From a virus (taxonomy: Duplodnaviria > Heunggongvirae > Uroviricota > Caudoviricetes), in the IMG/VR virus record IMGVR_UViG_646311924_000007, positions 33,898-97,897 of that record: 64,000 nt of DNA. One strand, written 5' to 3'. A program made the position numbers and the translations under genes. The notes under the pieces are model-generated. The model was not told the origin of the DNA and ran no database searches. It saw nothing but the letters and a program-made list of their open reading frames with translations. Of the stretch, positions 6,513-61,229 are shown one piece after another (the first letter of the stretch is position 1; every line of letters starts with the position of its first letter).

Positions 6513-6699
6513 GTATTTTTAAGTCGCGAATGCTATCTTTTCGCATCATATTGACCTTTTAATCGTTCAGGCTTATAGTTCCGCCGTCGTAGCAAATTCT
6601 GCGACCGGGTTTAGCAGCCTGAATGATTGTGCGGACAGCCGCAGATATCCGATATTGCGGTATTTTTGTGTCCGTAAAACCGCGTTACGCCCAAATTAT

Positions 6700-6776
6700 G
6701 GTGGGGCGTGATGGGGAGGCTTCGGCCTGCTGGTTTCACAATCGCCAGTCTGCTAACCCCGTCACGTCCTGCCACC
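6700..6776 (+). ncRNA. c4: candidate c4-like antisense regulatory RNA
   Basis: GC-rich segment with self-complementary ends (GGTGGGG...CCTGCCACC) between the operator and icd, in the position of P1 c4; has a 7-nt stretch (CTGCTAA) complementary to the icd leader; boundaries approximate. Confidence 0.3.
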
Positions 6777-6826
6777 TGTTTAGCAGCGGGTAGCAGGTTG
6801 TTAAACCTGATTGTGAGGCCGTAACT

Positions 6827-10218: not shown

Positions 10219-10625
10219 TACAATCGTTGCGGGTGCTTGAGGCTATCTGCTTCAGGCATTACCCGAAAAGCAGATAGAAGAAAGCCCCAGATAACATTAC
10301 GCGTCCTGCAAGACGCTTAACATTAATCTGAGGCCACATCTATGCTTAGCATACGTAGATTAGCCTCTTACCGACCAAAAGGTCAAGGAGAAGCAGGCTA
10401 TGAAGCAGCAAAAAGCGATGTTAATCGCTCTGATCGTCATCTGTTTAACCGTCATTGTGACGGCACTGGTAACGAGGAAAGACCTCTGCGAGGTACGAAT
10501 CCGAACCGGCCAGACGGAGGTCACTGTCTTCACAGCCTACGAATCTGAAAGGTAAGAGACCTGGCGGGGAGAGATCCCCGCCACTCTTCGTGTGTCAGGT
10601 ATCCTCAATGCACCCTTTCCTCTCC

Positions 10626-14284: not shown

Positions 14285-16012
14285 TTACTCAGAGTCACCG
14301 GCATCAATCGTGTCGCCGCTTATGAAGTTAAGCCCGCCTTTTTTGGCCATTGTCAGCGTTACACGAGTGAAGTAATCAGCGCCGTTGCGTGGGTGCATAT
14401 CGTTGATAGCCGAACCCCACAGTGTGGTACGGTTGACCAGCGCCGGAGTGGTCGGATGCTGGAACGGGATAGCCGGGACAGCATCACCAGTCACGAAGCC
14501 TGCTTTACCCGGATTTTCATCACGGACGTAGCACAGCACATCCATCGAGCTGAACTGAATGTTCTCTGTCGTTAAGTTCTTACAAATACCAGCAGGTACT
14601 TCGTACACTTTCACGTTACCGAACAGGGTACCGATGTAGTGAACATACGGAGTCTGGATATAGTCTTCGGCTGGCTGGAAGAAATCCTTCGGCAACTGTT
14701 TGAAGAAAGATGCTGCATCAGCACCAGCAAACATCCCCATCGCACCAGAAGATTTAACGCGCTCAATAATGTCGCGATATACAGTCTGGAATTTGCCACG
14801 AATGATGGTTGCCCATACATTAAAGGACTGGTTAACCGGCAGAGCGATGTCAAAGGTGTCGGTCGCAAGAGTACGCCAGATCATGATGCGAAGACGCAGC
14901 ATATCCTGTTCATGAGACAGGTATTCCTTCAGGGTGCGGAACTGTAGGGAACCCAGGTCCAGACCAAATTCACGCTGTGCTTCATACGCCGCCTGTACCG
15001 TGTGCTCAGCCGCGATAACGAACTGACTTGGGAACAGGGTGTATTTCTTCATTTCGTGGTTGATCAGCGGGATCAGCTCAGGTGCGGCTTCAATATTGAT
15101 TTCCGTCTCAATTGCGATCTCAGTGCCTTTATCCGGCGCTTTGGAGAACGACAGGGCAATCTGACCAATGTTGTAGTTCAGAGAGCAGGTAACAGTGATT
15201 TGCTCACCAGCAGCATTAGTAAACGAGTGAAGTAGGCTGCCGGAACCGTTATCAACAACAGACTTAATACGGTTAACGTAGATGTTAGTGCGACCTTTTC
15301 GGATTGGTACATTCTGGCCTTCGAAGTCTTCCATCTTGAAGGTTGCGGTTTTGCTGGTGCCATCGGAGCTTGCCACCAGCACATAGCGGCGACGTAACTG
15401 GCTGTACACACCAACGGATTGCATGTCCAGAACATCACCAGCAGCATAAGAACCAAAAGAGGAACCTGCCACGTTAAAGACTTCATAGATGTCGGACTGG
15501 TCACGCGTAACCGGAATGAAGGTACACGCATCAGCGGTAGCTGCCCCCAACTGAACAGGCAGGATCATCGCGAGGAATAAAGGCAGACGCATAACACCGT
15601 CAGAAACGCTCATCATCTCTGCTGCGACGGATTCCAGCATCGCTTTATTAGTGGCATCCATGCTATTGCGGGTGGACTCAATCAGGCAGTTTTCCAGCGT
15701 CTGGTGGCAGGAGGCCAGAATTTCCGGACGCGGCATAGATTTATGTGCTGCGGCGTAGTCAGCCAGTGCACTTGCCCACGCTGTAGCGATTTGAGCGGTG
15801 GCATTATCAGAGATACCCGCAAAAACCGGGTCTTTACGTGCAGCTTCAAGGATAGATGCGGCACGCGCGGCATCATCTTTAATGAATTGGTTATCAGTAC
15901 CGAACTGCGCAGTGCTTGCCCAGCCAAGCACAGCTTTAGAGCGTTTTGCGATATCTGCAATACGATTCTGGTATTCGCGTAAGTTACTCAATTTACTCTT
16001 CCTTAAACACAA
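14285..16012 (-). CDS. large virion protein, possibly major capsid protein precursor (575 aa)
   Basis: 575-aa ORF adjacent to parS, the position of P1 gene 23; size and position only. Confidence 0.4.
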   Translation of the reverse strand: MCLRKSKLSNLREYQNRIADIAKRSKAVLGWASTAQFGTDNQFIKDDAARAASILEAARKDPVFAGISDNATAQIATAWASALADYAAAHKSMPRPEILASCHQTLENCLIESTRNSMDATNKAMLESVAAEMMSVSDGVMRLPLFLAMILPVQLGAATADACTFIPVTRDQSDIYEVFNVAGSSFGSYAAGDVLDMQSVGVYSQLRRRYVLVASSDGTSKTATFKMEDFEGQNVPIRKGRTNIYVNRIKSVVDNGSGSLLHSFTNAAGEQITVTCSLNYNIGQIALSFSKAPDKGTEIAIETEINIEAAPELIPLINHEMKKYTLFPSQFVIAAEHTVQAAYEAQREFGLDLGSLQFRTLKEYLSHEQDMLRLRIMIWRTLATDTFDIALPVNQSFNVWATIIRGKFQTVYRDIIERVKSSGAMGMFAGADAASFFKQLPKDFFQPAEDYIQTPYVHYIGTLFGNVKVYEVPAGICKNLTTENIQFSSMDVLCYVRDENPGKAGFVTGDAVPAIPFQHPTTPALVNRTTLWGSAINDMHPRNGADYFTRVTLTMAKKGGLNFISGDTIDAGDSE

Positions 16013-16124
16013 GGCACTTGTGTGAATCCCTTTTCGGAAGAGATTTTATTGAAAGTCACTTGTTGACTTTCTCGTGACAAGCAATTTTTTTATTTTTTCG
16101 GGAGTAGGGGAGGAAGGTAAAATC

Positions 16125-16214
16125 CAAGGTGAAATCGTGGCGATTTCACCTTGAAATTTTAGATGGATTTACTTTAAAAACAGTAGGTTAATAGTGAAAT
16201 TTGAATGGCGAAAG
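16125..16214 (-). other. parS: parS partition site (P1 type)
   Basis: Reverse complement reads ATTTCAAGGTGAAATCGCCACGATTTCACCTTGG with ATTTCAC heptamers and TCGCCA hexamers plus an AT-rich IHF-like spacer, directly downstream of parB. Confidence 0.75.
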
Positions 16215-16215
16215 T

Positions 16216-17217
16216 TTAAGGCTTCGGCTTTTTATCGAGGCTCTTTCTAAGGATATGCCCAATCATCCTGTCGAGTTCTTCCTGTAGCTCTTTTGAAAGT
16301 CGATTAAACTCATAAGAAAATGCACGGCCTTTCACGCGCTTCCTTGCAAAGCGATCCTTGTCCTCAAATTTCCATAATTCAGTAACTACGGACTTATCTT
16401 TAGAACCTTTATCCGTGAGTAGTGAGGCTTCCTTTGTTATCAAGCGCAGGATTTTATTTTTAACTTCATCTTCGGCCATTTCTTCAATGGATAAGATGTC
16501 GTTTATTTCCGGGGATATGTTTTGAATAAGCTGATCAAACTCTAAATTCTTGTTCCCCATTTCGTCGCCAACAGCACAAAGCGTTTTGTAGTCCGAAAAG
16601 GTTAATTCCGACTGCACAGGGAAAAGGGCGACTAATTCTTCCGGAGCACTCGCTGCCTGGAGAGCACGCGTGACCTTAGCCTGAGACAGCCCTTCTTTGG
16701 CTGCAATATCCTTCTGACTCATCCCATCATTTTTCATTCGCATCAAACGCAGACCTATTTCTCGAATGCTGTGCTGCAATGCTGTCTGAACGTCTTTCGC
16801 TAAATTTTGCGCTTCCTGAACGCTGATCTCCTGGTCCGTGACTAAAACCCGCAACCCTACGTTCTCTAAGATGGCAGAAGCTCGACGCCGGGAACCATCC
16901 AAAATTTCAATTTTCCCTGTACCCCGTCTAACACCTATTGCAGGGTAAAATTGCTGATGCTTAATAGTGCTTCGGATACTTTTTAATGATTTTGGCGTAA
17001 GAGATGCCTGGTCACGCCCGTTGTTATGCTGATCAACAAAGGTATCGCTTTCTACCTGGTTCGGAGGTATTACCTCTTCAATAAATGTGGCCTGGCGACC
17101 AGTTGATAACTTGAATACCTGCTCGACTCGATCGCCAGAGGCTGAAGAACTATCAAATCCGCTTAATATTGAAGGATTAAGGGTTCGCCCAATTGTTGGT
17201 CTGTTTTTCTTTGACAT
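16216..17217 (-). CDS. parB: ParB partition protein (333 aa)
   Basis: 333 aa as in P1 ParB; HTH region (MSQKDIAAKEGLSQAKVTRALQ); downstream of parA and followed by parS. Confidence 0.85.
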   Translation of the reverse strand: MSKKNRPTIGRTLNPSILSGFDSSSASGDRVEQVFKLSTGRQATFIEEVIPPNQVESDTFVDQHNNGRDQASLTPKSLKSIRSTIKHQQFYPAIGVRRGTGKIEILDGSRRRASAILENVGLRVLVTDQEISVQEAQNLAKDVQTALQHSIREIGLRLMRMKNDGMSQKDIAAKEGLSQAKVTRALQAASAPEELVALFPVQSELTFSDYKTLCAVGDEMGNKNLEFDQLIQNISPEINDILSIEEMAEDEVKNKILRLITKEASLLTDKGSKDKSVVTELWKFEDKDRFARKRVKGRAFSYEFNRLSKELQEELDRMIGHILRKSLDKKPKP

Positions 17218-17233
17218 GGGGGTTTCTTACTCC

Positions 17234-18430
17234 TCAGTTAGATCTGATAAATTCAATACGGTCAAAAACTGCTTTAGCAAAATCTTCCGCGGCAATTCGC
17301 GCGTTCTTCAATGCATCAGCACTACCAACATACGTTGCCGGGTTAGCTGAAATAACAGTGTCAAAAGACTCGCCGCAACGTTCAAAACCGTCAAGGCGAG
17401 GGAGGACGACATCGAGCATATCCCCACCGAACACTTCTTTAGCCAGGCTATGGCAATACTTATGATCTGCCTTGTTACTCAACTTGGACATAAAACCAAT
17501 GTTAGTCGCAAGCTGGCACTCGCAGCCTTCATCCGAAATGAGTTTCACCAACTCAGGAAGGCGGGCAACGTATTTAAGCGATGAGTGGAAATCGACAGTT
17601 GCTGGCGGCAGAGGTGTAAACAGTATATTGGCCGAGGCCAAAGCATTTTTCAGGAAGGCGTCAAGGTGAGGACCACTATCAACGAGGATAAAGTCATAAT
17701 CGCTCTTCAGCTTATCAATCACATTTTCTTTCAGGACAGCATGGATGTTCTGACCCGGTAGATGCTCATTGCACAGCTCTCTCCAATCGGATGCAATAAA
17801 GGCATCGTCAATCGACGCAGGCATAACGTCAACCCCAGGTACAACAGAAGGAACAATAAACTCCTCTAACAGCTCTTCACGGCTTACATTCTGCAACATA
17901 GCCTGTGCAGATGTTGCGTTTACGATACCAATAGAGTGTTTATGGCTTAAAAACATCGTTGCTGAAGATTGCGGATCAAGGTCAATAACCAGAATCCTTA
18001 AATCTTCCATCAGAAGATGAGGGTGAGCACGCATTGCATGCGCCAGAGAAACCGTCGATACAGTTTTTGACACACCGCCTTTAAGATTGGAGATGAAAAT
18101 CACATACGCTTCGCTGTAGCGATCCCGGTATTTTGGCACTCCGCGATGTTCATATATGTCAATGATGTTCTGAATTGACATCGCATATTTCATTGAAGAG
18201 CCAGCAGGGCGTTTATCGAAAACATAACCCTTTTCTTCCATTTCACTTACGGCATAGTCAACGTTCGCTCGAGTCAGTAGAGGCAATTTTGCCAGTGCCG
18301 CTTTCGCATAGACCTGGTAAAACTCGTTCGCGTGTAGCTCATCCTTTTGCAACTGTACTTGTTCAGTCAGAACATTGAGCATTCTGTTTGCTCTTTGAGC
18401 AACCTTGTGAAGCTGGCTGGAATCACTCAT
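17234..18430 (-). CDS. parA: ParA partition ATPase (398 aa, long N-terminal type)
   Basis: Deviant Walker A (ISNLKGGVSKT) after an N-terminal regulatory extension; 398 aa as in P1 ParA. Confidence 0.9.
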   Translation of the reverse strand: MSDSSQLHKVAQRANRMLNVLTEQVQLQKDELHANEFYQVYAKAALAKLPLLTRANVDYAVSEMEEKGYVFDKRPAGSSMKYAMSIQNIIDIYEHRGVPKYRDRYSEAYVIFISNLKGGVSKTVSTVSLAHAMRAHPHLLMEDLRILVIDLDPQSSATMFLSHKHSIGIVNATSAQAMLQNVSREELLEEFIVPSVVPGVDVMPASIDDAFIASDWRELCNEHLPGQNIHAVLKENVIDKLKSDYDFILVDSGPHLDAFLKNALASANILFTPLPPATVDFHSSLKYVARLPELVKLISDEGCECQLATNIGFMSKLSNKADHKYCHSLAKEVFGGDMLDVVLPRLDGFERCGESFDTVISANPATYVGSADALKNARIAAEDFAKAVFDRIEFIRSN

Positions 18431-18570
18431 CGAAAGTCATCCTTTATGCTGTATTTTTGAATTTAATTAAAAATGCTGCATAAAATAATAATGTATGCGT
18501 AGATGCTTGTACATGGCATTCTCTGCATGTTTTGTTCATTTTGCACGATTGAGAGTTACAAGAAAGGCAC

Positions 18571-18591
18571 AAAAAAGCCCCGTTCAGGGGC
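18571..18591 (-). terminator. rho-independent terminator (minus strand)
   Basis: On the minus strand GCCCCTGAACGGGGC hairpin followed by TTTTTT, 8 nt after the stop of the 134-aa ORF and just upstream of the par promoter region. Confidence 0.6.
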
Positions 18592-18598
18592 ATCAGTG

Positions 18599-19003
18599 TT
18601 ATTTGCTAAGAGCAGCGAATAATCGTTCGAAATCGATAGTATCTATAGCACGCGTAAGCGCCGGAAGTTCAGCCTCAAAGTACCCGTGTCGATCGTAAAA
18701 GAAGGGACCGAAGAGCGAGGCATGTTGGATTCTACTTCGCCCCAGCCCGGACACACAGTTAAGCCCATTACCGGCTAAAAGGCTAAAAAACTTCTCTGGA
18801 TTATCGTGGTAAAGCTGAGAATCAATGGTGGCGGTTAACTCTTCCATAGGGAAGCACACCCGCCCTGTCTCCCAGGGATATTTAGTCCGAAGCATAAACA
18901 TTGCTTTCAGCAATTCACATTGAGCGCGGATCGCGTCCGGTTCATAGCCAGATATGGAGACATAAGCCACGTCCCTCATTCCTGCGTCATCTTTGAAAGT
19001 CAC
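18599..19003 (-). CDS. hypothetical protein (134 aa), partner of the T5orf172-like gene
   Basis: ORF co-oriented with and 70 nt downstream of the 111-aa gene, followed by its own terminator; no recognisable motif. Confidence 0.5.
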   Translation of the reverse strand: MTFKDDAGMRDVAYVSISGYEPDAIRAQCELLKAMFMLRTKYPWETGRVCFPMEELTATIDSQLYHDNPEKFFSLLAGNGLNCVSGLGRSRIQHASLFGPFFYDRHGYFEAELPALTRAIDTIDFERLFAALSK

Positions 19004-19072
19004 GATAGAAGTAACATCCAGTTCTTTTTCGAAAGAGCGAGCAGCATCTACTGGACGCTGAAGTAAATCATT

Positions 19073-19408
19073 CTACTTAATGCGCTCGAGAATCCCTCCC
19101 CACATATCATTTAGATATTCGATATGAGCCAAAACCTTATCAAGACACTCTCGTGTAAACCATTCAGTATGCCCGCCACCGGCGCTTTTCTCCCACGGCG
19201 CATTCCAGGGGAAAAAGGTTGCGTGTAAAGCCCGCTCAAGATTAACCATTGCCAAACGCGTACCACGATAGACCCGTGAAAGCGCAAAATCGGGACTCAC
19301 TTGTAGCCCTTTAAACCGTGCCAATGGACCACATGAAATGCCGATTTTAAAAGTATCTCCGTTCTCCGGCACCAGAACGTAGAGGTAGTGTTGTTTCTCT
19401 TCTTGCAT
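19073..19408 (-). CDS. T5orf172-type (GIY-YIG-like) domain protein (111 aa)
   Basis: Motifs matching the T5orf172/GIY-YIG-like pattern: YLYVL...GDTFKIGIS...LERALH...GGGHTEWF; start codon checked at 19406-19408. Confidence 0.55.
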   Translation of the reverse strand: MQEEKQHYLYVLVPENGDTFKIGISCGPLARFKGLQVSPDFALSRVYRGTRLAMVNLERALHATFFPWNAPWEKSAGGGHTEWFTRECLDKVLAHIEYLNDMWGGILERIK

Positions 19409-19442
19409 ATCAATACCACTGCTTGATGAGAACCGCGCAAAT

Positions 19443-19699
19443 GTTGACTATGCGCGAAAGTTAATGTGAATAGTTGACTATGCGCGATGTGACTACAGTC
19501 AAAAGTTGACTGTAGTCGATTTAACTCCACCAAAGATCGACTATGTAAGATATTGTCGGGAGAAACGTTGACTATACGCGATGAAATGACCCTAAAAGCC
19601 ATCTCAATAGCGACTTGCAGAATATTGACGCCAGCAAAAATCCACCAGCGTCAACGAATGTCGCCTATAGTCAACTTCTCGCTATCGCATATAGTCAAT
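19443..19699. repeat. incA: incA-like iteron array downstream of repA
   Basis: At least 7 copies of the 15-bp repeat GTTGACTATGCGCGA and variants, in both orientations. Confidence 0.7.
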
Positions 19700-19700
19700 A

Positions 19701-20642
19701 TTATGGATTGCGCTTATGGATCTGAAAGCCGATTTTCCTGCCGTTTTTTATCTCTGAAAATTTAAGATATTCAATAGCTTCCAAATCTTTCATGGCTTTT
19801 CTGATAACGCTATTTTGCACGCTAACGGATGATTTGAGATTAAGCCTTGCTCTAAGGCGCTCAATGCTGACAGGTGCCGGGTTGGCGGGTAGAGCCTCAA
19901 AGAATGTATACAGTACCTTGGCCGTCTCTTTGCGCCCGAGCTTATCCAGCATCTTCAGCTTCAGGATTCGCTTATAGTCAACATAGTAAAGTTCAGATAG
20001 CTGTTTCTGCGGCTGGATCTCGATAACATCAAGCTCGGTATTCAGGCTGCTATATGCCAACAAGTTGACGTTAATGTTATTGAGATGACCTTTTGCCGCC
20101 GGGAAGCGGAATTTGACAACTGTCTGCTGAATGCGTGTCAGAGAGTCATCAATACTTTTACGGAACGCCTTTGAAAGGCGCTTACGTGGATAGCCGCATC
20201 GATCGGCAAACTCGGAGAATGGCAGGGTGATTATGCCGTCATCATCAGGTGCGTAGTCAAACAACGCGGAGGTTATGCCCACCCACACCTTAAAATCAGT
20301 ATCCATATCCAGGCGTGGACCATGAATTTCAATTCCCTCATAGCCTTCCTGCTCAACAATTTTGAGGCTTGATAGTTCTTCGGTTGCGTTCGTTGTGTTT
20401 GTAGTAACTGACGATCCGCGACGTAGTGCCACATTGGTAGATTTTAAGGTTGGCACAAACACACCTAAGCGCAACAAAGCAATGGGTTGTATAGTGCTAT
20501 TGTTATTGGGTTTCAGGCTGTGGATTTCTCCTGTATTTCCTGCAACTTCTTCAACGCTAAGGAAGCCTTTATTTTCTTCCAGCATCGTGGTTTCTCCATA
20601 TGTGGCGCGGCCTGGCGTCATCTGGATTGCAGTTATCAACAA
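19701..20642 (-). CDS. repA: RepA plasmid replication initiator
   Basis: Conserved GPRLDMDTDFK core of P1/RepFIB-type initiators; flanked by iteron arrays; ORF starts with TTG in the track, so the true start is probably an internal ATG. Confidence 0.8.
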   Translation of the reverse strand: MLITAIQMTPGRATYGETTMLEENKGFLSVEEVAGNTGEIHSLKPNNNSTIQPIALLRLGVFVPTLKSTNVALRRGSSVTTNTTNATEELSSLKIVEQEGYEGIEIHGPRLDMDTDFKVWVGITSALFDYAPDDDGIITLPFSEFADRCGYPRKRLSKAFRKSIDDSLTRIQQTVVKFRFPAAKGHLNNINVNLLAYSSLNTELDVIEIQPQKQLSELYYVDYKRILKLKMLDKLGRKETAKVLYTFFEALPANPAPVSIERLRARLNLKSSVSVQNSVIRKAMKDLEAIEYLKFSEIKNGRKIGFQIHKRNP

Positions 20643-20665
20643 CTGTGAATAGTCAGGCTCTAAAA

Positions 20666-20765
20666 TCGCGTACAGTCAATGTTTCTGTCGCATATAGTCA
20701 ACAATAAATCGCGTGCAGTCAACAATAAATCGTGCACAGTCAACATAAAATCGCGTATAGTCAAT
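20666..20765. repeat. incC/oriR iterons (5 direct repeats, 21-22 bp spacing)
   Basis: TCGCGTACAGTCAA, TCGCATATAGTCAAC, TCGCGTGCAGTCAAC, TCGTGCACAGTCAAC, TCGCGTATAGTCAAT immediately upstream of repA. Confidence 0.75.
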
Positions 20766-20767
20766 GT

Positions 20768-20876
20768 TGATCCCATTTCAGGCCAGAAATGGCGCGGCTT
20801 ACAGCGATCCGGGATCTTCTTTGGATCTTCCTGGGTTCTCTTTAGGATCTGTTTATTGGATCTATGCTGTGGATAA
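20768..20876. other. oriR accessory region: GATC cluster and DnaA box
   Basis: Seven GATC sites within about 95 bp followed by TGTGGATAA (DnaA box, reverse orientation); architecture matches P1 oriR. Confidence 0.55.
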
Positions 20877-20918
20877 GTTGAATAAACCGGCCAACATAGC
20901 CGGTTGGAAGGAAGGGTA

Positions 20919-21311
20919 TTATTCTACGCTTTCGATAAGAAGACCATGTTCATAACATTTAAGCTCATCGCCTTCGTACAGGAATTGGTATCCAATACCA
21001 CCATTTTCATGGACATTAGGGAATAACTCATAACTCACTGAAGAGCAAATCACACCAATGCAGCGATCAACGCCTTCTCGTTCTTCAGTGCTGAAAAAAT
21101 CCTCTTCGGTAAGAACATGAGTACATTGCTCATCAGCATAGGTCGGAAATACATGCTCGATGCAATCCGGGTGTTTTAAACCAAGCTGATCGGCAAGCTC
21201 GAAAGCATGACGGTATTGTTCAGATCCTGGCTTGCCAACAGTGATGTGCTCAATTTTGTAGATTGAAGTCGCTTTGTTGATAGTTTGCTTTACTGTTACT
21301 TTATCAGACAT
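20919..21311 (-). CDS. hypothetical protein (130 aa)
   Basis: ORF; Cys/His-containing acidic protein; no clear motif. Confidence 0.45.
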   Translation of the reverse strand: MSDKVTVKQTINKATSIYKIEHITVGKPGSEQYRHAFELADQLGLKHPDCIEHVFPTYADEQCTHVLTEEDFFSTEEREGVDRCIGVICSSVSYELFPNVHENGGIGYQFLYEGDELKCYEHGLLIESVE

Positions 21312-21322
21312 AAAAATCCCTT

Positions 21323-21655
21323 TTAGTTACCGCTGATAGCGCGGTTGTAATCATTAACGTTGCGATTCTTCCTGTTAATCCCCATCAGCATCGTTTCTGT
21401 ATCGAGGATATACGCTGGCAGATCATCAAAATATTCACTGCTAAACTCTGGCATCCTGCACATAAACGCACTTTTGGGGGCAGGGTGGTTAACCTTTGTC
21501 GGCGTCGGCGTTAAATTCGCTGATCGACTCCCGGAGCAACCGCTGAGTGTCAGCAGGAATGCGCTGGCGAACATTACCCGCCGCAACCAGTTGTTTCTGA
21601 ACTTCAGCTTTTCGTTCCATTTGCCTGTCAGCATATTTGGCTTGTTCTGATTCAT
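21323..21655 (-). CDS. lipoprotein, o-spanin-like (probable start at internal Met, lipobox LTLSGC)
   Basis: Lipobox L-S-G-C followed by Pro-rich mature sequence; reading frame overlaps the 3' end of the upstream i-spanin-like gene. Confidence 0.45.
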   Translation of the reverse strand: MNQNKPNMLTGKWNEKLKFRNNWLRRVMFASAFLLTLSGCSGSRSANLTPTPTKVNHPAPKSAFMCRMPEFSSEYFDDLPAYILDTETMLMGINRKNRNVNDYNRAISGN

Positions 21656-21938
21656 TTTTCACTTCCTGGCTGTGAAAATGTTGCTCTGCTTTGTTCATCG
21701 TCTCAATGGTCTGGTTAAGATCCATTATTGACTTATCACGTTCCTTAACAGCCTGATCAAGACTGCCAATTTTCTCCATGGCTTGCTTTAGCTGATGACG
21801 TTCCCATGCAAACCCAGCACCAACAAGTGCGCAAATCAGAACAAGAACACCAGTAGCAGCAAGTTTCTCCTTCAAAGACAAAGCTGTTTTTAACGTAGAA
21901 AAGAATGACATGTCTTCCTCCTGAAGAAAAATTATCAA
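21489..21938 (-). CDS. i-spanin-like protein (N-terminal TM helix + coiled coil)
   Basis: TM segment LAATGVLVLICALVGAGFAW then charged coiled-coil region; overlapped by the lipoprotein ORF in another frame. Confidence 0.45.
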   Translation of the reverse strand: MIIFLQEEDMSFFSTLKTALSLKEKLAATGVLVLICALVGAGFAWERHQLKQAMEKIGSLDQAVKERDKSIMDLNQTIETMNKAEQHFHSQEVKNESEQAKYADRQMERKAEVQKQLVAAGNVRQRIPADTQRLLRESISEFNADADKG

Positions 21939-21950
21939 TGAAGTCCTTTG

Positions 21951-22796
21951 TTACCGTGCCGCTTTGTTTAATTCATCAAGAACAGAATCAGGAACCAAAG
22001 CGGCGACTGCGCTGGCTGTGCTGGCCTTATTTGCTGATGCTTCCGCAAGCGCGGTACCGATAGCATGGTTATAAGCAGTTATGGCTACGTTGGCGCTTTC
22101 ATTCGCTCGTTCATACTGCTGTTGTAACGCAGTTGTGGGTGCTGTTGTCTGGTTGAAAACAACCCCAAACTGTTCAGTTGCTACTTTCAGAGATTCAATT
22201 TGCTCTTCTGTTAGTGCTGGTGGGGGAGTGGCAGTGCCGCCGCCTGAACCAGAGCCTGACGAGCTTTCTGAGCCAGTGTTAAGGGCCTGGTTAATCTCCC
22301 CCATTGCAGCGACTAAACTTGATGTATTAAGCGCGTTAACAGCGTCCTCAAGCGATTTAGTAATATTCACATCACCAATGGCAATAGAGATCGGCAGTTC
22401 TGAAACTTCTCGCTCATTAGCACGGCAGTAAACATCCCAACCAATATCGAGTTGAAGCAGCATTGACAGATCTGCATAACCAGCCAACAGGTCCGCGTGC
22501 TTAGTTGCCAGTTCTCCAATGTTCGTTAAGCCGGTTGTGGTTGTTCTGATCGTTGAAACATAGCTGGTAATAGTGTCGGGATAGACAATTGTATCCAGAA
22601 TTAATCCGGTCAATTCTTCTGCAAGCAGTTTTGCTGTGTTAGCACTGTTTCGTGCCGATGTTATGGCACCAGGTGTTTTCATCCCACCGGCGGCGGCCAA
22701 TTTTTTATATGCGGATAACTGGTAGTCTTTTTCCAGCATGATATCTCCTAACTTACCTGAACCAGGCCGTCTCCGGACGCTACGGTAGATCCGCAT
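21951..22796 (-). CDS. hypothetical protein with Gly/Ser-rich linker (281 aa)
   Basis: ORF; SSGSGSGGG linker between two domains. Confidence 0.4.
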   Translation of the reverse strand: MRIYRSVRRRPGSGKLGDIMLEKDYQLSAYKKLAAAGGMKTPGAITSARNSANTAKLLAEELTGLILDTIVYPDTITSYVSTIRTTTTGLTNIGELATKHADLLAGYADLSMLLQLDIGWDVYCRANEREVSELPISIAIGDVNITKSLEDAVNALNTSSLVAAMGEINQALNTGSESSSGSGSGGGTATPPPALTEEQIESLKVATEQFGVVFNQTTAPTTALQQQYERANESANVAITAYNHAIGTALAEASANKASTASAVAALVPDSVLDELNKAAR

Positions 22797-23032
22797 GAAA
22801 CAGGGTCACCAACGCATACGATCCCTTTACCATTGACGGTAAACCATGCCCTGGTTGATATAGCTTGCCCACCGTGCGTACTGTTTCCATCGGTATGCTG
22901 TGCATATTGCTTACCATCAACTAACACTTCGACTCCGTTGACTTTAAGTAGTGGTTCACTCTCTACAGGAGGCCTGGATGGGAATCCTCCGTGCCCCGAA
23001 CAAATGCTGTCTTTTGTTGCAATGCTTGCCAC
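22748..23032 (-). CDS. small Gly/Cys-rich protein, possibly PAAR-like (94 aa)
   Basis: Repeated G-rich motifs (CSGHGG, THGG, GDPVSCGSTVASGDG); assignment tentative. Confidence 0.3.
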   Translation of the reverse strand: MASIATKDSICSGHGGFPSRPPVESEPLLKVNGVEVLVDGKQYAQHTDGNSTHGGQAISTRAWFTVNGKGIVCVGDPVSCGSTVASGDGLVQVS

Positions 23033-23113
23033 GCCATCACCAATTATTTGCTCTGATTTTCGTTATTTTAACTTAGGTTATTTGTGGTCTGTATGGCGTT
23101 TACTTATCGCAAA

Positions 23114-23130
23114 ATTGCTCTAATAAATAT
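23114..23130 (+). promoter_or_regulatory. C1 operator-like 17-mer (ATTGCTCTAATAAATAT) at the start of the uhr-hrdC-dmt operon
   Basis: 16/17 match to consensus; its last base is the first base of the uhr start codon. Confidence 0.6.
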
Positions 23131-23486
23131 TGTTTTTTATGTCGTATTTTCGGTACCATTCAGCCATCGCCCTTCAATGGGCATTTGTTTGGAGTCGTCA
23201 GATGCAGATGGAGCTAATAAGCCGCAAAGAGTTCGATAGCCGTGTAACCAGCGGTGAACTCGACAACTTGCAGGCTATCAAGGTGAAAGAAGGCTTTTGC
23301 CTCATTGGGAATCAGAGCGGAATAAATCGCGTTTTTATGCTTCGCCGTACGGATTTGAAGCCATTTGTCTGGAAGAACGAAATTGGTCCCAGCTCATACG
23401 CTCAAACGAGGGGGTGCCACAACCTGGCCTTTTTCTACAAAGACGAGCTTTCTGTGGTTGATATTCAAGGGTTACAACATGTTTAA
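23130..23486 (+). CDS. hypothetical protein upstream of hrdC (118 aa ORF)
   Basis: ORF overlapping the hrdC start by 8 nt. Confidence 0.45.
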
Positions 23487-28094: not shown

Positions 28095-28169
28095 GATGGT
28101 GTAGCTCAGCGGTAGAGCAGTTGGCTGTTAACCAACTGGTCGGTAGTTCGAATCCACCCACCATCGCCA
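28095..28169 (+). tRNA. tRNA-Asn (anticodon GUU)
   Basis: Hand-folded cloverleaf: 7-bp acceptor GATGGTG/CACCATC, D-arm GCTCAGCGGTAGAGC, anticodon loop CUGUUAA, T-loop TTCGAAT, 3' CCA encoded; coordinates anchored to overlapping track ORFs. Confidence 0.8.
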
Positions 28170-28174
28170 CTTTA

Positions 28175-28261
28175 GGGGAGTTAGTCCGTAGGGGTAGCGG
28201 GGTAGACTGTAAATCTACTGTCATTGCGACTCGGGTGGTTCGACTCCATCACTCCCCACCA
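28175..28261 (+). tRNA. tRNA-like gene, class II, anticodon GUA (Tyr-like)
   Basis: Acceptor GGGGAGT/ACTCCCC, anticodon stem-loop GTAGA-CUGUAAA-TCTAC, 15-nt variable arm, T-arm GGTGG-TTCGACT-CCATC, CCA encoded; D-arm geometry irregular by 1 nt. Confidence 0.45.
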
Positions 28262-28265
28262 CATT

Positions 28266-28341
28266 GCCGATTTAGCTCAGTTGGTAGAGCAGTCGCTTTG
28301 TAAGCGAATGGTCAGCGGTTCGATCCCGTTAATCGGCACCA
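28266..28341 (+). tRNA. tRNA-Thr (anticodon UGU)
   Basis: Acceptor GCCGATT/AATCGGC, D-arm GCTCAGTTGGTAGAGC, anticodon loop UUUGUAA, T-loop TTCGATC, CCA encoded. Confidence 0.8.
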
Positions 28342-28345
28342 ACAT

Positions 28346-29076
28346 AACAGGTAAGAGCATTCTCCCTTATGGGGCCTGGCTTAAATGCATCGAGTGCTCT
28401 TACCGTTGTGATGAAGTGCAGATCTTAGAAGCAACCAGAAGATAAGCATCTGGCTTCACAACATAAACCGCAGGAACGACCAATAAACGGTAGTCCGTAT
28501 GGAGAACACCCCGTTGAGGAAGAGGCCTGGCCGGAACCGTAACCGGCGACTGGTAATGTGTGTAAATGGAGCGAAATATGTGGGCGTTTAACGGGATACG
28601 GGTTGTAACAGCGATTATTAACGGCGAACTTAAGTATTCACGTTTCGAGACAAATGAACGTGATGGGAAATGTATTGGTGTGCGGTTAGTAAGAGAATAC
28701 GCATAACAACTACAACGTTGAGAACACTGGCGTAACGGGGTCATATCCCAATCTACGAATAAATGTTGCGTTGCCGCGTGACAACCAGTGTTCTCAACAT
28801 TGTGGTGAATGCACAGGCTGATGTGCCGCAACTACAGTAGTGCGCGCTTTGCGGGGCTTGCTACAACCCTGTGTCGGAGTTCAGCACCGACCATCACAGT
28901 TTGATTCTCTGGCATGAGCATAACGCTGAAATAAGTCCAGTCTGGTGCGGTCTGATCACCCGCCGTTAGCTCCACGAAACGGAGCACGTAACAGGTAAGA
29001 GCATTCTCCTGTAACGGGTTCATATCCCAATCTACAGGTCCACCAAGAATGCTCTTTCCGTTGCGGTGAATGCGGC
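28346..29076 (+). repeat. ORF-free tract with three repeated hairpin units (candidate structured RNAs)
   Basis: Repeated blocks ACAGGTAAGAGCATTCTCC (x2), GTAACGGGKTCATATCCCAATCTAC (x2) and TTGYGRTGAAKGC (x3), each embedded in 10-18 bp inverted repeats; only implausible ORFs across it; coordinates +/-1. Confidence 0.45.
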
Positions 29077-29214
29077 TAAGCGCACGCGGGGAAATGGTTA
29101 TATCTGTCCATTATTTCTCCTTGTTTCCACGTCCACGGTGGATAACCAGCCAAAGGACACCGGGAGGAACCCGGCACCGCAGCTTTTTTATTCGTTAAAT
29201 AATGGAGTGAGAGG

Positions 29215-29451
29215 ATGCAGAACAATCCGAACAAATGTCGAACGCTATGGGTGCGGTTATATATTTATGCCGTCCTCTGTTTGATTGTGTCACTGGTTCT
29301 GTATGTTTGGCTTTTGCCAAATATGATCTCATCTAACAGCACAATACTTGTATTGTTGGGAGTCCTTCTCGCGCTCATTTACCCGGCTTTCGCAGTAGTC
29401 TTTTTTCGTGAAAAAACCAGGAAATTAATTAATGAAAAAAACGTTGATTAG
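29215..29451 (+). CDS. small integral membrane protein (78 aa)
   Basis: Two TM helices; overlaps the start of the downstream lipoprotein gene. Confidence 0.45.
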   Translation: MQNNPNKCRTLWVRLYIYAVLCLIVSLVLYVWLLPNMISSNSTILVLLGVLLALIYPAFAVVFFREKTRKLINEKNVD

Positions 29452-59430: not shown

Positions 59431-59612
59431 TGTTTTTTAACTACCGATGTTACATTGAGCCTGACCTCTTGCGCCTTGAGGCATTTTCGGTTTATGCTTA
59501 TCAGGCACCTCATTAAAACGGGTGCCGGGATTGGCCTCCCGCTTAAGTCTAAGGCGATACAGACGCCGCTCGCGTCTTTTTTTGTATCGGCGTACACGCA
59601 CACCTCTACAAT

Positions 59613-59691
59613 GGTGGGCTGTATGGGGCTACCTTCGGGTAGGCTGGTTACCTTGGACGCCAGTAAGGCCAACTCCGTACAGTCCACCGCC
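59613..59691 (+). ncRNA. candidate second c4-like antisense RNA
   Basis: Begins GGTGGGC and ends CCACCGCC like the module-1 candidate; contains CCTTGGACG, 8/9 complementary to the icd-2 RBS region; boundaries approximate. Confidence 0.3.
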
Positions 59692-59748
59692 AGCAAGATT
59701 GGTCTCTTCTGCGGTGGTTACATACCAACGTCTAAGGAGGCTGCCAAT

Positions 59749-60015: not shown

Positions 60016-60906
60016 TCAGGCTGCCAGATCATCGTTTCCGATGGAAGCATAATAAGCTTTTTCTGCTTCTGCCGGAGGAGTATGGCCCAGCCTTCCCAGC
60101 AATCGTCGATTGTTATACCAGTCCACCCACGTTAGTGTGGCCAGTTCCACTTCTGCACGGTTTTTCCAGCTCTTACGGTGTATTACCTCCGCTTTGTAAA
60201 GACCATTGATGCTCTCAGCCATCGCGTTGTCATACGAGTCGCCTGTACTCCCTGTTGATGCCAGTAATCCGGCTTCTTTTAGTCGCTCCGTATAGGCCAG
60301 TGACACATACTGAGAGCCTTTATCGCTGTGATGGATGGTGCCAGACGGACGACGGGCCCACAACGCCTGCTCCAGCGCATCCAGCACGAATGTCGTTTCC
60401 ATAGACGATGAGACCCGCCACCCCACGATGTATCCGGCAAACACATCAATGATAAACGCCACATAGACGAAGCCCTGCCATGTGCTGACGTAAGTAAAAT
60501 CAGCCACCCACAGCTGGTCAGGTCGTTCTGCCACGAACTGACGGTTTACGCGGTCGCCTGCGGCAACGGCTTTCCGGCTGATGGTCGTACGGACCTTTTT
60601 ACCCCGGAGAACACCGGCAAGTCCCATAACCGCCATGAGACGTGCCACTGTACATCTGGCCACCCTGATTCCTTCCCGTAACAACTGACGCCAGACTTTA
60701 CGCACACCGTACACCTGATGATTTTCATCGTATACGCGCTGTATCTCTCTCTTCAGCCAGTCGTCGTGCTGCGCACGGGCACTGCGTTTATCCGGATGAT
60801 GTCGCTGTTGCTGACAATGGTAATACGTTGACGGGGCAATATGCAGTTCGCTGCATACCGGTCCGACCCCGTACTGCTCACGCAGCTTATCCAGCAGTGG
60901 CATCAT
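60016..60906 (-). CDS. IS3-family transposase OrfB
   Basis: Protein identical to 41379..42269. Confidence 0.85.
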
Positions 60907-61229
60907 TTTTTCCAGAGGCGGTCGAACTCCGCCTTCGCAAAATAAGCGGAAGCCTGGCGAAGGATATCGTTACTGCGGCGCAGTTCACGATTTTCACGTT
61001 CCAGCTCTTTCAGACGCTGACGTTCAGCGCTGGTGAGCCCACCATCACCGCCCCCGGTATCCCGCTCATGCTGGCGAACCCAGACACGCAGAGTCTCCGG
61101 CGTACAGCCAATCTTTGGGGCAATGGAACAAATTGCCGCCCACTGTGAGTCATATTCATCCTGACTTTCCAGAACCATACGAATCGCCCGCTGACGGACT
61201 TCGGGGGAAAAACGAGTATTTTTAGTCAT
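60903..61229 (-). CDS. IS3-family transposase OrfA
   Basis: Protein identical to 41056..41382. Confidence 0.85.

Follow-up and report, generated by a model that had tools for sequence, protein, structure and literature searches.

A predicted T5orf172-type nuclease gene at the edge of the p0111-type replicon block of P1-like phage-plasmids: one gene split by an amber codon and repeatedly lost

The DNA considered here is a stretch of 64,000 nucleotides of a Caudoviricetes virus (positions 33,898 to 97,897 of the IMG/VR record IMGVR_UViG_646311924_000007), referred to below as the window, and its subject is a locus between the incA-like iterons and the partition gene parA of a P1-like replicon, designated gene X. 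Although an initial annotation of the window treated this locus as a cassette of two genes, a possible small nuclease and an immunity or regulatory partner, positions 18599-19408 almost certainly hold one gene cut by a nonsense mutation, and what was taken for a partner is this protein's own C-terminal half. The intact gene, which forms part of a p0111-type replicon block that replaces the IncY block of P1, is predicted to encode a T5orf172/GIY-YIG-type nuclease that may act in the manner of a homing endonuclease. Taken as a whole, this account of a single split gene, a homing-endonuclease-like mechanism and subsequent decay is considered slightly likelier to be right than wrong.

The two open reading frames (ORFs) of that annotation, 111 and 134 amino acids (aa) long and co-oriented on the minus strand, are both present in the interval between the iterons and parA (Table 1), the order on that strand being repA, six iterons, the 111-aa ORF, the 134-aa ORF, a hairpin, a Ppar-like promoter, parA and parB. 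The intrinsic terminator assigned to the pair was likewise recovered, as a G+C-rich terminator-like hairpin that is kept in all four aligned relatives. The ORFs are not, however, separate genes. Their starts lie 405 nt apart (3 x 135), which places them in one frame, and translation from 19408 to 18599 gives a continuous frame of 269 codons with one internal TAG at codon 112. In a five-way alignment this codon is the sole difference at the split, being TAG in the window and TCG (Ser) in each of the four relatives. The substitution (TCG>TAG, Ser112>amber; C>A on the coding strand) truncates the protein after its nuclease domain, and this single-base change is the reason why ORF callers see two ORFs. 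PHROG 2876, a profile of 269 positions, spans both, with the upstream ORF matching positions 1-111 (E=1e-79) and the downstream ORF positions 136-269 (E=9e-90). The same DNA is present at 99% identity in the phages RCS47 and Ro157c2YLVW, where it is annotated as one 810-nt coding sequence (CDS) for a "GIY-YIG nuclease family protein". Protein cluster P0001, with 1241 member sequences and a length of 269 aa, likewise shares 99% identity with gene X, and a single protein of 269 aa is encoded by 38 of the 46 loci that were fully inspected.

The two-gene reading finds a parallel in the RefSeq Prokaryotic Genome Annotation Pipeline (PGAP), which also splits the amber allele into two CDSs, a 111-aa GIY-YIG protein and a 123-aa hypothetical protein, but it has next to no probability in view of the common frame and the single-nucleotide polymorphism (SNP) between the ORFs, on which grounds co-folding of two proteins was dropped. 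Inspection of the sequence revealed no purine-rich ribosome-binding sequence upstream of the GTG start of the 134-aa ORF, and the one diverged homolog of gene X, described below, is likewise a single ORF. The amber allele itself, counted by exact match of a 46-nt probe centred on the TAG among PLSDB plasmids and complete Escherichia coli genomes, was found in 11 of 399 plasmids and 27 of 410 genomes (3-7% of copies), while the remaining probe matches, each one base off this allele, make up the 93-97% of copies without TAG. Hosts of the TAG allele with a stated serotype are Shiga toxin-producing E. coli (STEC) of O111:H8, O157:H7 or O103:H2.

Hardly any weight can be given either to programmed read-through or suppression of the amber codon, by which the window copy would still yield some full-length protein as a regulated, low-dose nuclease. 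The allele does persist in 27 complete genomes of several serotypes with its downstream part nearly unchanged (99.75-100% identity), but a recent origin of the clade explains this persistence equally well. Codon 112 encodes Ser in all other lineages, the region yielded neither a read-through signal nor an RNA family (Rfam places none in the interval), and the other knock-outs of gene X are unrelated nonsense or frameshift events. Both the two-gene cassette and programmed read-through are effectively excluded. Residues 1-111 are the sole part of gene X expected to be translated in the window. Since the 134-aa ORF has no ribosome-binding sequence, the C-terminal part is most likely not made in this strain, and the window copy is presumed to be non-functional, as hardly any specific activity, if any, is to be expected of a nuclease domain that has lost its DNA-binding domain. 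No promoter for gene X passed a scan of the minus strand between repA and the gene, which may therefore be co-transcribed with repA.

Table 1. Coordinates of gene X and of the surrounding replication and partition features in the window
Feature	Position	Strand	Remarks
Gene X	18599..19408	-	269 codons + stop; predicted T5orf172/GIY-YIG-family nuclease; here a pseudogene, codon 112 being an in-frame TAG
Amber codon TAG (codon 112)	19073..19075	-	TCG (Ser) in relatives; alignment column 367
N-terminal T5orf172 (GIY-YIG-like) nuclease domain (predicted)	19076..19408	-	Residues 1-111
Linker and orphan C-terminal domain	18599..19072	-	Residues 113-269
111-aa ORF	19073-19408	-	Upstream piece of gene X
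134-aa ORF	18599-19003	-	GTG start; last 134 codons of gene X
Intrinsic-terminator-like hairpin	18577..18591 (read 18591-18577)	-	GCCCCTGAACGGGGC, then T-run TTTTTTGTGC; directly 3' of the gene X stop
Replicon block without P1 homology	18533..20781	.	2249 bp; blastn against P1; gene X at the par-proximal edge
incA-like iteron array	19443..19699	.	Six copies of GTTGACTATRCGCGA; four in one orientation, two in the other
repA, p0111-type initiator	19701..20585	-	41% aa identity to P1 RepA; RepB-family initiator annotation in 398 PLSDB plasmids
incC-like origin iterons	20666..20765	-	Five copies, ~21-bp spacing; number and position as in the P1 incC iterons
Ppar-like promoter	18485-18513		Upstream of parA
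parA	17234..18430	-	99.7% aa identity to P1 ParA

The genomic setting of gene X is a replicon that has been exchanged relative to P1. By blastn, positions 16000-18532 are 99.25% identical to P1 and positions 20782-23469 are 95% identical, homology stopping at 18532 and resuming at 20782, and the intervening 2249 bp of the window replaces 1491 bp of P1. The products encoded on either side follow the same division, with 99.7% identity to P1 for ParA and ParB and 96% for UpfA, as against 41% for RepA. The swapped block constitutes a specificity module of five origin iterons, repA and the incA iterons, together with gene X and its terminator. Its right breakpoint lies just past the fifth origin iteron, and its left one ~44 bp from the gene X terminator and, with respect to the Ppar -35 box, 19 bp upstream; gene X is therefore seated at a recombination boundary between relatives, ~40 bp to its inner side, since homology ends at 18532. 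The closest incA-like iteron precedes the gene X start by 35 bp, and iteron matches in the window number 16, compared with 2.6 expected by chance. One further near-perfect copy (one mismatch) lies outside both arrays, within the repA coding sequence at 19968-19982 (-). The longest ORF of repA starts at a TTG at 20642 and encodes 313 aa, whereas relatives are annotated from the ATG at 20585 with 294 aa, the additional part being 20586-20642 (-).

The initial annotation placed incA and the par promoter nearly adjacent to each other in P1, which is correct: about 190 bp separate the Ppar -35 box from the first incA iteron, with no gene between them. Its further proposal of an accessory insertion holds only in that gene X is absent from P1 at this position; a simple insertion is ruled out, as the whole incC-repA-incA block has been replaced rather than interrupted, and gene X is part of the p0111-type block that takes the place of the IncY block. 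No gene was found at the equivalent spacer of IncY-type plasmids with either P1-type or P7-type par, where the spacer measures only 115-190 bp. PLSDB matches to the P1 region show the incA-Ppar spacer (P1 61312-61487; L005 3813-3988) to be a module junction in three classes of P1-like plasmids, and the interval between Ppar and the first incA iteron is a general junction at which rep and par modules have been reassorted. In one class, 144 records match at least 80% of the query; in a second, the match begins at the first iteron (IncY rep with P7-type par; spacer ~115 bp); and in a third, that of the p0111 block and gene X, it ends at P1 61312-61315. In a non-P1 backbone (L049; CP042620.1, 83524-93655), a repA of 76% identity and its iterons occur without gene X, and therefore the p0111 initiator family as such does not need gene X and is common to unrelated phage-plasmid backbones. 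This backbone is phage-like; a convergent tail gene adjoins its repA, and gene X and parA are both missing beside it.

Gene X is present in 410 of 5426 complete E. coli genomes and in 400 PLSDB records, compared with 398 records for p0111-type repA, with the same host breakdown. It is no core component of all P1-family replicons, being absent from IncY-type P1, but it appears to be fixed in p0111-type P1-like phage-plasmids. The family comprises two lineages. One is the p0111 type of E. coli, Salmonella, Shigella and Klebsiella, in which all copies are at least 96% identical; scans of a one-genome-per-species set (1 locus) and of IMG/VR (41 loci) recovered only copies at or above the same level. 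The other is represented by L006, a P1-like contig of 95.7 kb in which the order repA-iterons-X-parA is the same as in the window and which carries the sole diverged homolog of gene X; a second word-index search seeded with this homolog returned no additional homologs. As side observations, L006 (Logan ERR2144811 contig) shares 89% identity with the window in ParA, 80% in gp23, 67% in ParB and 49% in PpfA, and its called gene X ORF extends 41 codons upstream across the iterons, an internal Met being the probable true start. Gene X is also, at 98-99% identity, gp57 of JL22 and the "GIY-YIG nuclease family protein" of SJ46/RCS47-type Punavirus genomes, relative to which the window carries the Ser112>amber allele. 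JL22 gp57 was noted earlier as an unknown gene replacing the IncY repA together with repA' (p0111) (PMC9603915), and no function for the gene was assigned in the literature found.

The initial assignment of the 111-aa ORF to the T5orf172/GIY-YIG group is borne out by profile search, in which residues 8-86 match Pfam T5orf172 (PF10544) with 30.3 bits (curated cut-off 20; E=6e-7); the same family is also precomputed for protein clusters P0001, P0002 and P0004. The core motif residues Y8-x-Y10, K21-I-G23, R31, E58 and H62 are invariant in the L006 homolog (60% domain identity). BLASTP aligns residues 4-62 of gene X with residues 115-184 of Odn of phage ICP1 (E 0.009), whereby E58 falls on Odn E180, whose mutation distinguishes the catalytically dead variant Odn* (PMC8263062). 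A weak alignment to the GIY-YIG protein 1YWL (E 0.31) matches YxYVL, the F-x-x-G position within the YIG-like motif and the Arg. These comparisons argue that residues 1 to ~105 of gene X form a T5orf172/GIY-YIG-type nuclease domain. A known anti-phage defence system was rejected as an identity for gene X, since neither the defence models of PADLOC-DB 2.0 (at E up to 1) nor NCBIfam yielded any matching family.

In the intact protein a linker, itself poorly predicted, leads from this nuclease domain to a C-terminal domain that is ~140 aa long. Sequence searches of Pfam, NCBIfam and PDB returned nothing significant for the latter (chance matches only in PDB), and a full HMMER scan of 1.84 billion representative proteins gave five matches, all of them family members or frameshifted fragments, with no Rep protein among them. 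Searches of plasmids and phages by tblastn found only echoes of the N-terminal domain, in Cupriavidus and a Vibrio phage. AlphaFold2 (AF2) predicted the full-length protein with a predicted local distance difference test score (pLDDT) of 56 and the 134-aa ORF alone with a pLDDT of 68 and a predicted template modelling score (pTM) of 0.64. For two independent AF2 models, winged-helix-type DNA binders were among the top weak structural matches, and a winged-helix-like DNA-binding domain is a reasonable but weakly supported interpretation of this region. A structure search of BFVD gave no significant match (E 0.44). As replication initiators recurred among the structural matches, an Odn-style mimic of RepA was tested directly and rejected: an hhalign comparison of the C-terminal domain with a RepA alignment gave a probability of 0.07%, the structural echoes were non-significant, generic winged-helix proteins (CRP-like, MarR, TcpK) scored as high as Rep proteins, and there is no sequence similarity to either the resident RepA or P1 RepA. 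Between the window and L006, the C-terminal domain has the lowest identity of all genes compared (32%, against 61% for the N-terminal domain of gene X, 84% for RepA and 89% for ParA).

Variation within the p0111 type (46 loci, 31 alleles) indicates that gene X is constrained, though far less than its neighbours. Its variant codons comprise 32 synonymous, 37 missense and 3 nonsense changes, 56% being non-synonymous compared with 77% expected under neutrality (p=3e-5), and the ratio of non-synonymous to synonymous polymorphism (pN/pS) is 0.31 for gene X, 0.02 for repA, 0.003 for parA and 0.06 for parB. Null alleles include S112* in the clade of the window, Q228* in SJ46, W68* in L044, L93* plus W103* in CP062896, a 2-bp deletion in E. 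albertii CP043240 and two 1-bp deletions in 673R5, the last of which may be sequencing errors. Gene X has thus been knocked out independently at least five times, and possibly six, whereas repA, parA and parB contain no stops at the same loci. Given non-synonymous variation significantly below neutral expectation, recurrent nulls and intact rep and par genes, gene X is therefore a genuine coding gene, which plasmids can do without for their maintenance and which is repeatedly lost, and its relaxed constraint with recurrent nulls is the pattern of degeneration after fixation.

With respect to function, the favoured interpretation is that intact gene X encodes a free-standing, homing-endonuclease-like, sequence-specific DNase. 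A DNA site would be recognised by its winged-helix-like C-terminal domain, and the T5orf172 domain tethered to it would cleave close to that site, the likely substrate being a related P1-type genome without gene X. Repair of the cut would then copy gene X together with the linked replicon block, and the gene, now fixed in its lineage and under weak selection, would decay repeatedly. This mechanism, taken by itself, is given about an even chance. It is ranked first because a terminal nuclease is combined with a separate putative DNA-binding domain, the gene occupies an intergenic seat beside essential genes and at a recombination boundary, the non-catalytic domain diverges fast, and decay has followed fixation.

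The closest known systems support this ranking to different degrees. In I-TevI and in SegA-G of T4, an N-terminal catalytic domain is joined by a flexible linker to a C-terminal DNA-binding domain, and these genes are intergenic and optional relative to close relatives, with co-conversion of flanking markers expected. Gene X resembles this family, as generally known, in its predicted domain order and its intergenic, optional seat, but is a member of the T5orf172 subfamily and not a canonical GIY-YIG enzyme, has no sequence similarity to these enzymes beyond the core motifs, and is only proposed to home. T5orf172 genes have been described as homing-endonuclease genes at the boundaries of genetic exchange between phages (Barth et al. 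2023, PMC10448857), and gene X shares with these putative homing-endonuclease genes of ICP1, T5-like and other phages the same Pfam domain above threshold, a nuclease at one terminus, a separate putative DNA-binding region, a fast-diverging non-nuclease domain and a free-standing, intergenic position at an exchange boundary, beside genes for essential functions (replication and partition). In contrast to that set, it is present in a single copy per genome and lies in the replicon module of a temperate phage-plasmid rather than in a lytic phage.

Several observations weigh against homing. Of the described T5orf172 homing-endonuclease genes, 87% have CapR-like zinc-finger domains (CapR/DUF723/DUF4397; PMC10448857), whereas gene X has none and carries an orphan C-terminal domain instead. 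No copy of the same P1-like replicon block without gene X was found among the 398 records with repA and the 400 with gene X, and therefore the classic present/absent polymorphism of a homing site is missing. Gene X is absent from the IncY-type P1 and P7-par types, but their whole rep block differs, so that they offer no true empty-site allele, and in the sole relative without gene X the backbone around repA (76% identical) is a different one. The residual purifying selection (pN/pS 0.31) might just as well stem from a function beneficial to the host or the plasmid.

Such a function might be that of a competitor-directed or defence nuclease like Odn of ICP1 (gp88, an origin-directed nuclease; PMC8263062), kept for cutting a rival element rather than for homing, with the origin or iterons of another P1-type replicon, a satellite or a superinfecting phage as proposed targets. 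Gene X belongs to the same family as Odn, their nuclease cores align in BLASTP with the catalytic Glu matched, and both fuse a T5orf172 nuclease to a DNA-binding domain (putative in gene X) and are linked to conflicts over replicon modules and iterons; gene X is physically tied to the replicon specificity module and adjoins its iterons, and a pN/pS below 1 implies that some function has been retained. This explanation is nevertheless judged unlikely. The domain order is reversed, the DNA-binding domain of Odn being N-terminal, and that domain is 42% identical to the RepA_N domain of its donor, whereas the C-terminal domain of gene X has no detectable sequence similarity to any Rep protein and only non-significant structural echoes, which gives no support to an initiator-homologous DNA-binding domain as in Odn. 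No PADLOC model matches gene X, and frequent knock-outs persist across several STEC serotypes. A bolder reading, to which only a small probability is attached, regards gene X as a replicon-linked "drive" nuclease. Its C-terminal domain would then be an initiator-like winged helix that has diverged strongly and is directed, in rival P1-type plasmid prophages without gene X, at the iterons or the rep/par junction. If this were true, a rival that is cut would either be lost or acquire the p0111 replicon block, which would explain the coexistence of two replicon types on near-identical P1 backbones, and no nuclease before gene X would have been shown to drive the replacement of replicons in phage-plasmids.

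A different possibility is domestication: gene X may no longer be a nuclease but a DNA-binding regulator near incA or Ppar that tunes replication or partition or insulates the operons. The repressor CapR of PLE, derived from a homing endonuclease, provides a model for such a change. The position between incA and Ppar is kept in both known lineages, gene X occurs in about as many plasmids as p0111 repA, and there is precedent for domesticated T5orf172-related proteins (PMC10448857; bioRxiv 10.1101/2020.11.28.402263). This proposal is rated as improbable, somewhat below the competitor nuclease, since all catalytic motif residues are kept, E58 included, and the neighbouring replication and partition genes are very strongly constrained while gene X is not. 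Moreover, at least five independent nulls lie in otherwise intact plasmids, including complete circular STEC plasmids, from which it follows that gene X is dispensable for maintenance, and a related repA works in another backbone without it.

Elsewhere in the window, several other elements were observed. ALIL pseudoknots, a frameshift element of the IS3 family of insertion sequences (ISs), occur at 41337-41453 (+) and 60832-60948 (-) with identical scores, inverted and about 19 kb apart, which suggests that two IS copies bracket a segment of the P1-like backbone, possibly as a composite transposon or cargo region. A sok antitoxin RNA at 10231-10405 (+; 114.8 bits) points to a hok/sok-type post-segregational killing module; the known addiction module of P1 is phd/doc. 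Two C4 antisense RNA genes lie at 6573-6779 (+) and 59505-59694 (+), one with an a1/b1 target as in the immI region of P1 and the second preceded by isrK, which suggests a second antirepressor-control region within the same 64 kb. Four tRNA genes (Rfam RF00005) are clustered at 28095-30359 (+).

For the annotation of these plasmids, the consequence is that the two-CDS RefSeq entries of STEC plasmids with the amber allele are to be taken as one pseudogene. Gene X is an annotated gene whose function is inferred, which is dispensable and whose copy in the window is dead. P1-like phage-plasmids are common carriers of resistance genes and exist with two replicon types on nearly one backbone, and the predicted T5orf172 nuclease, encoded exactly where the swapped block ends, offers a concrete and testable candidate for the factor that favoured the swap. 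If it does play this part, the pattern in which nucleases mark the boundaries of genetic exchange would extend from lytic phages to plasmid replicons.

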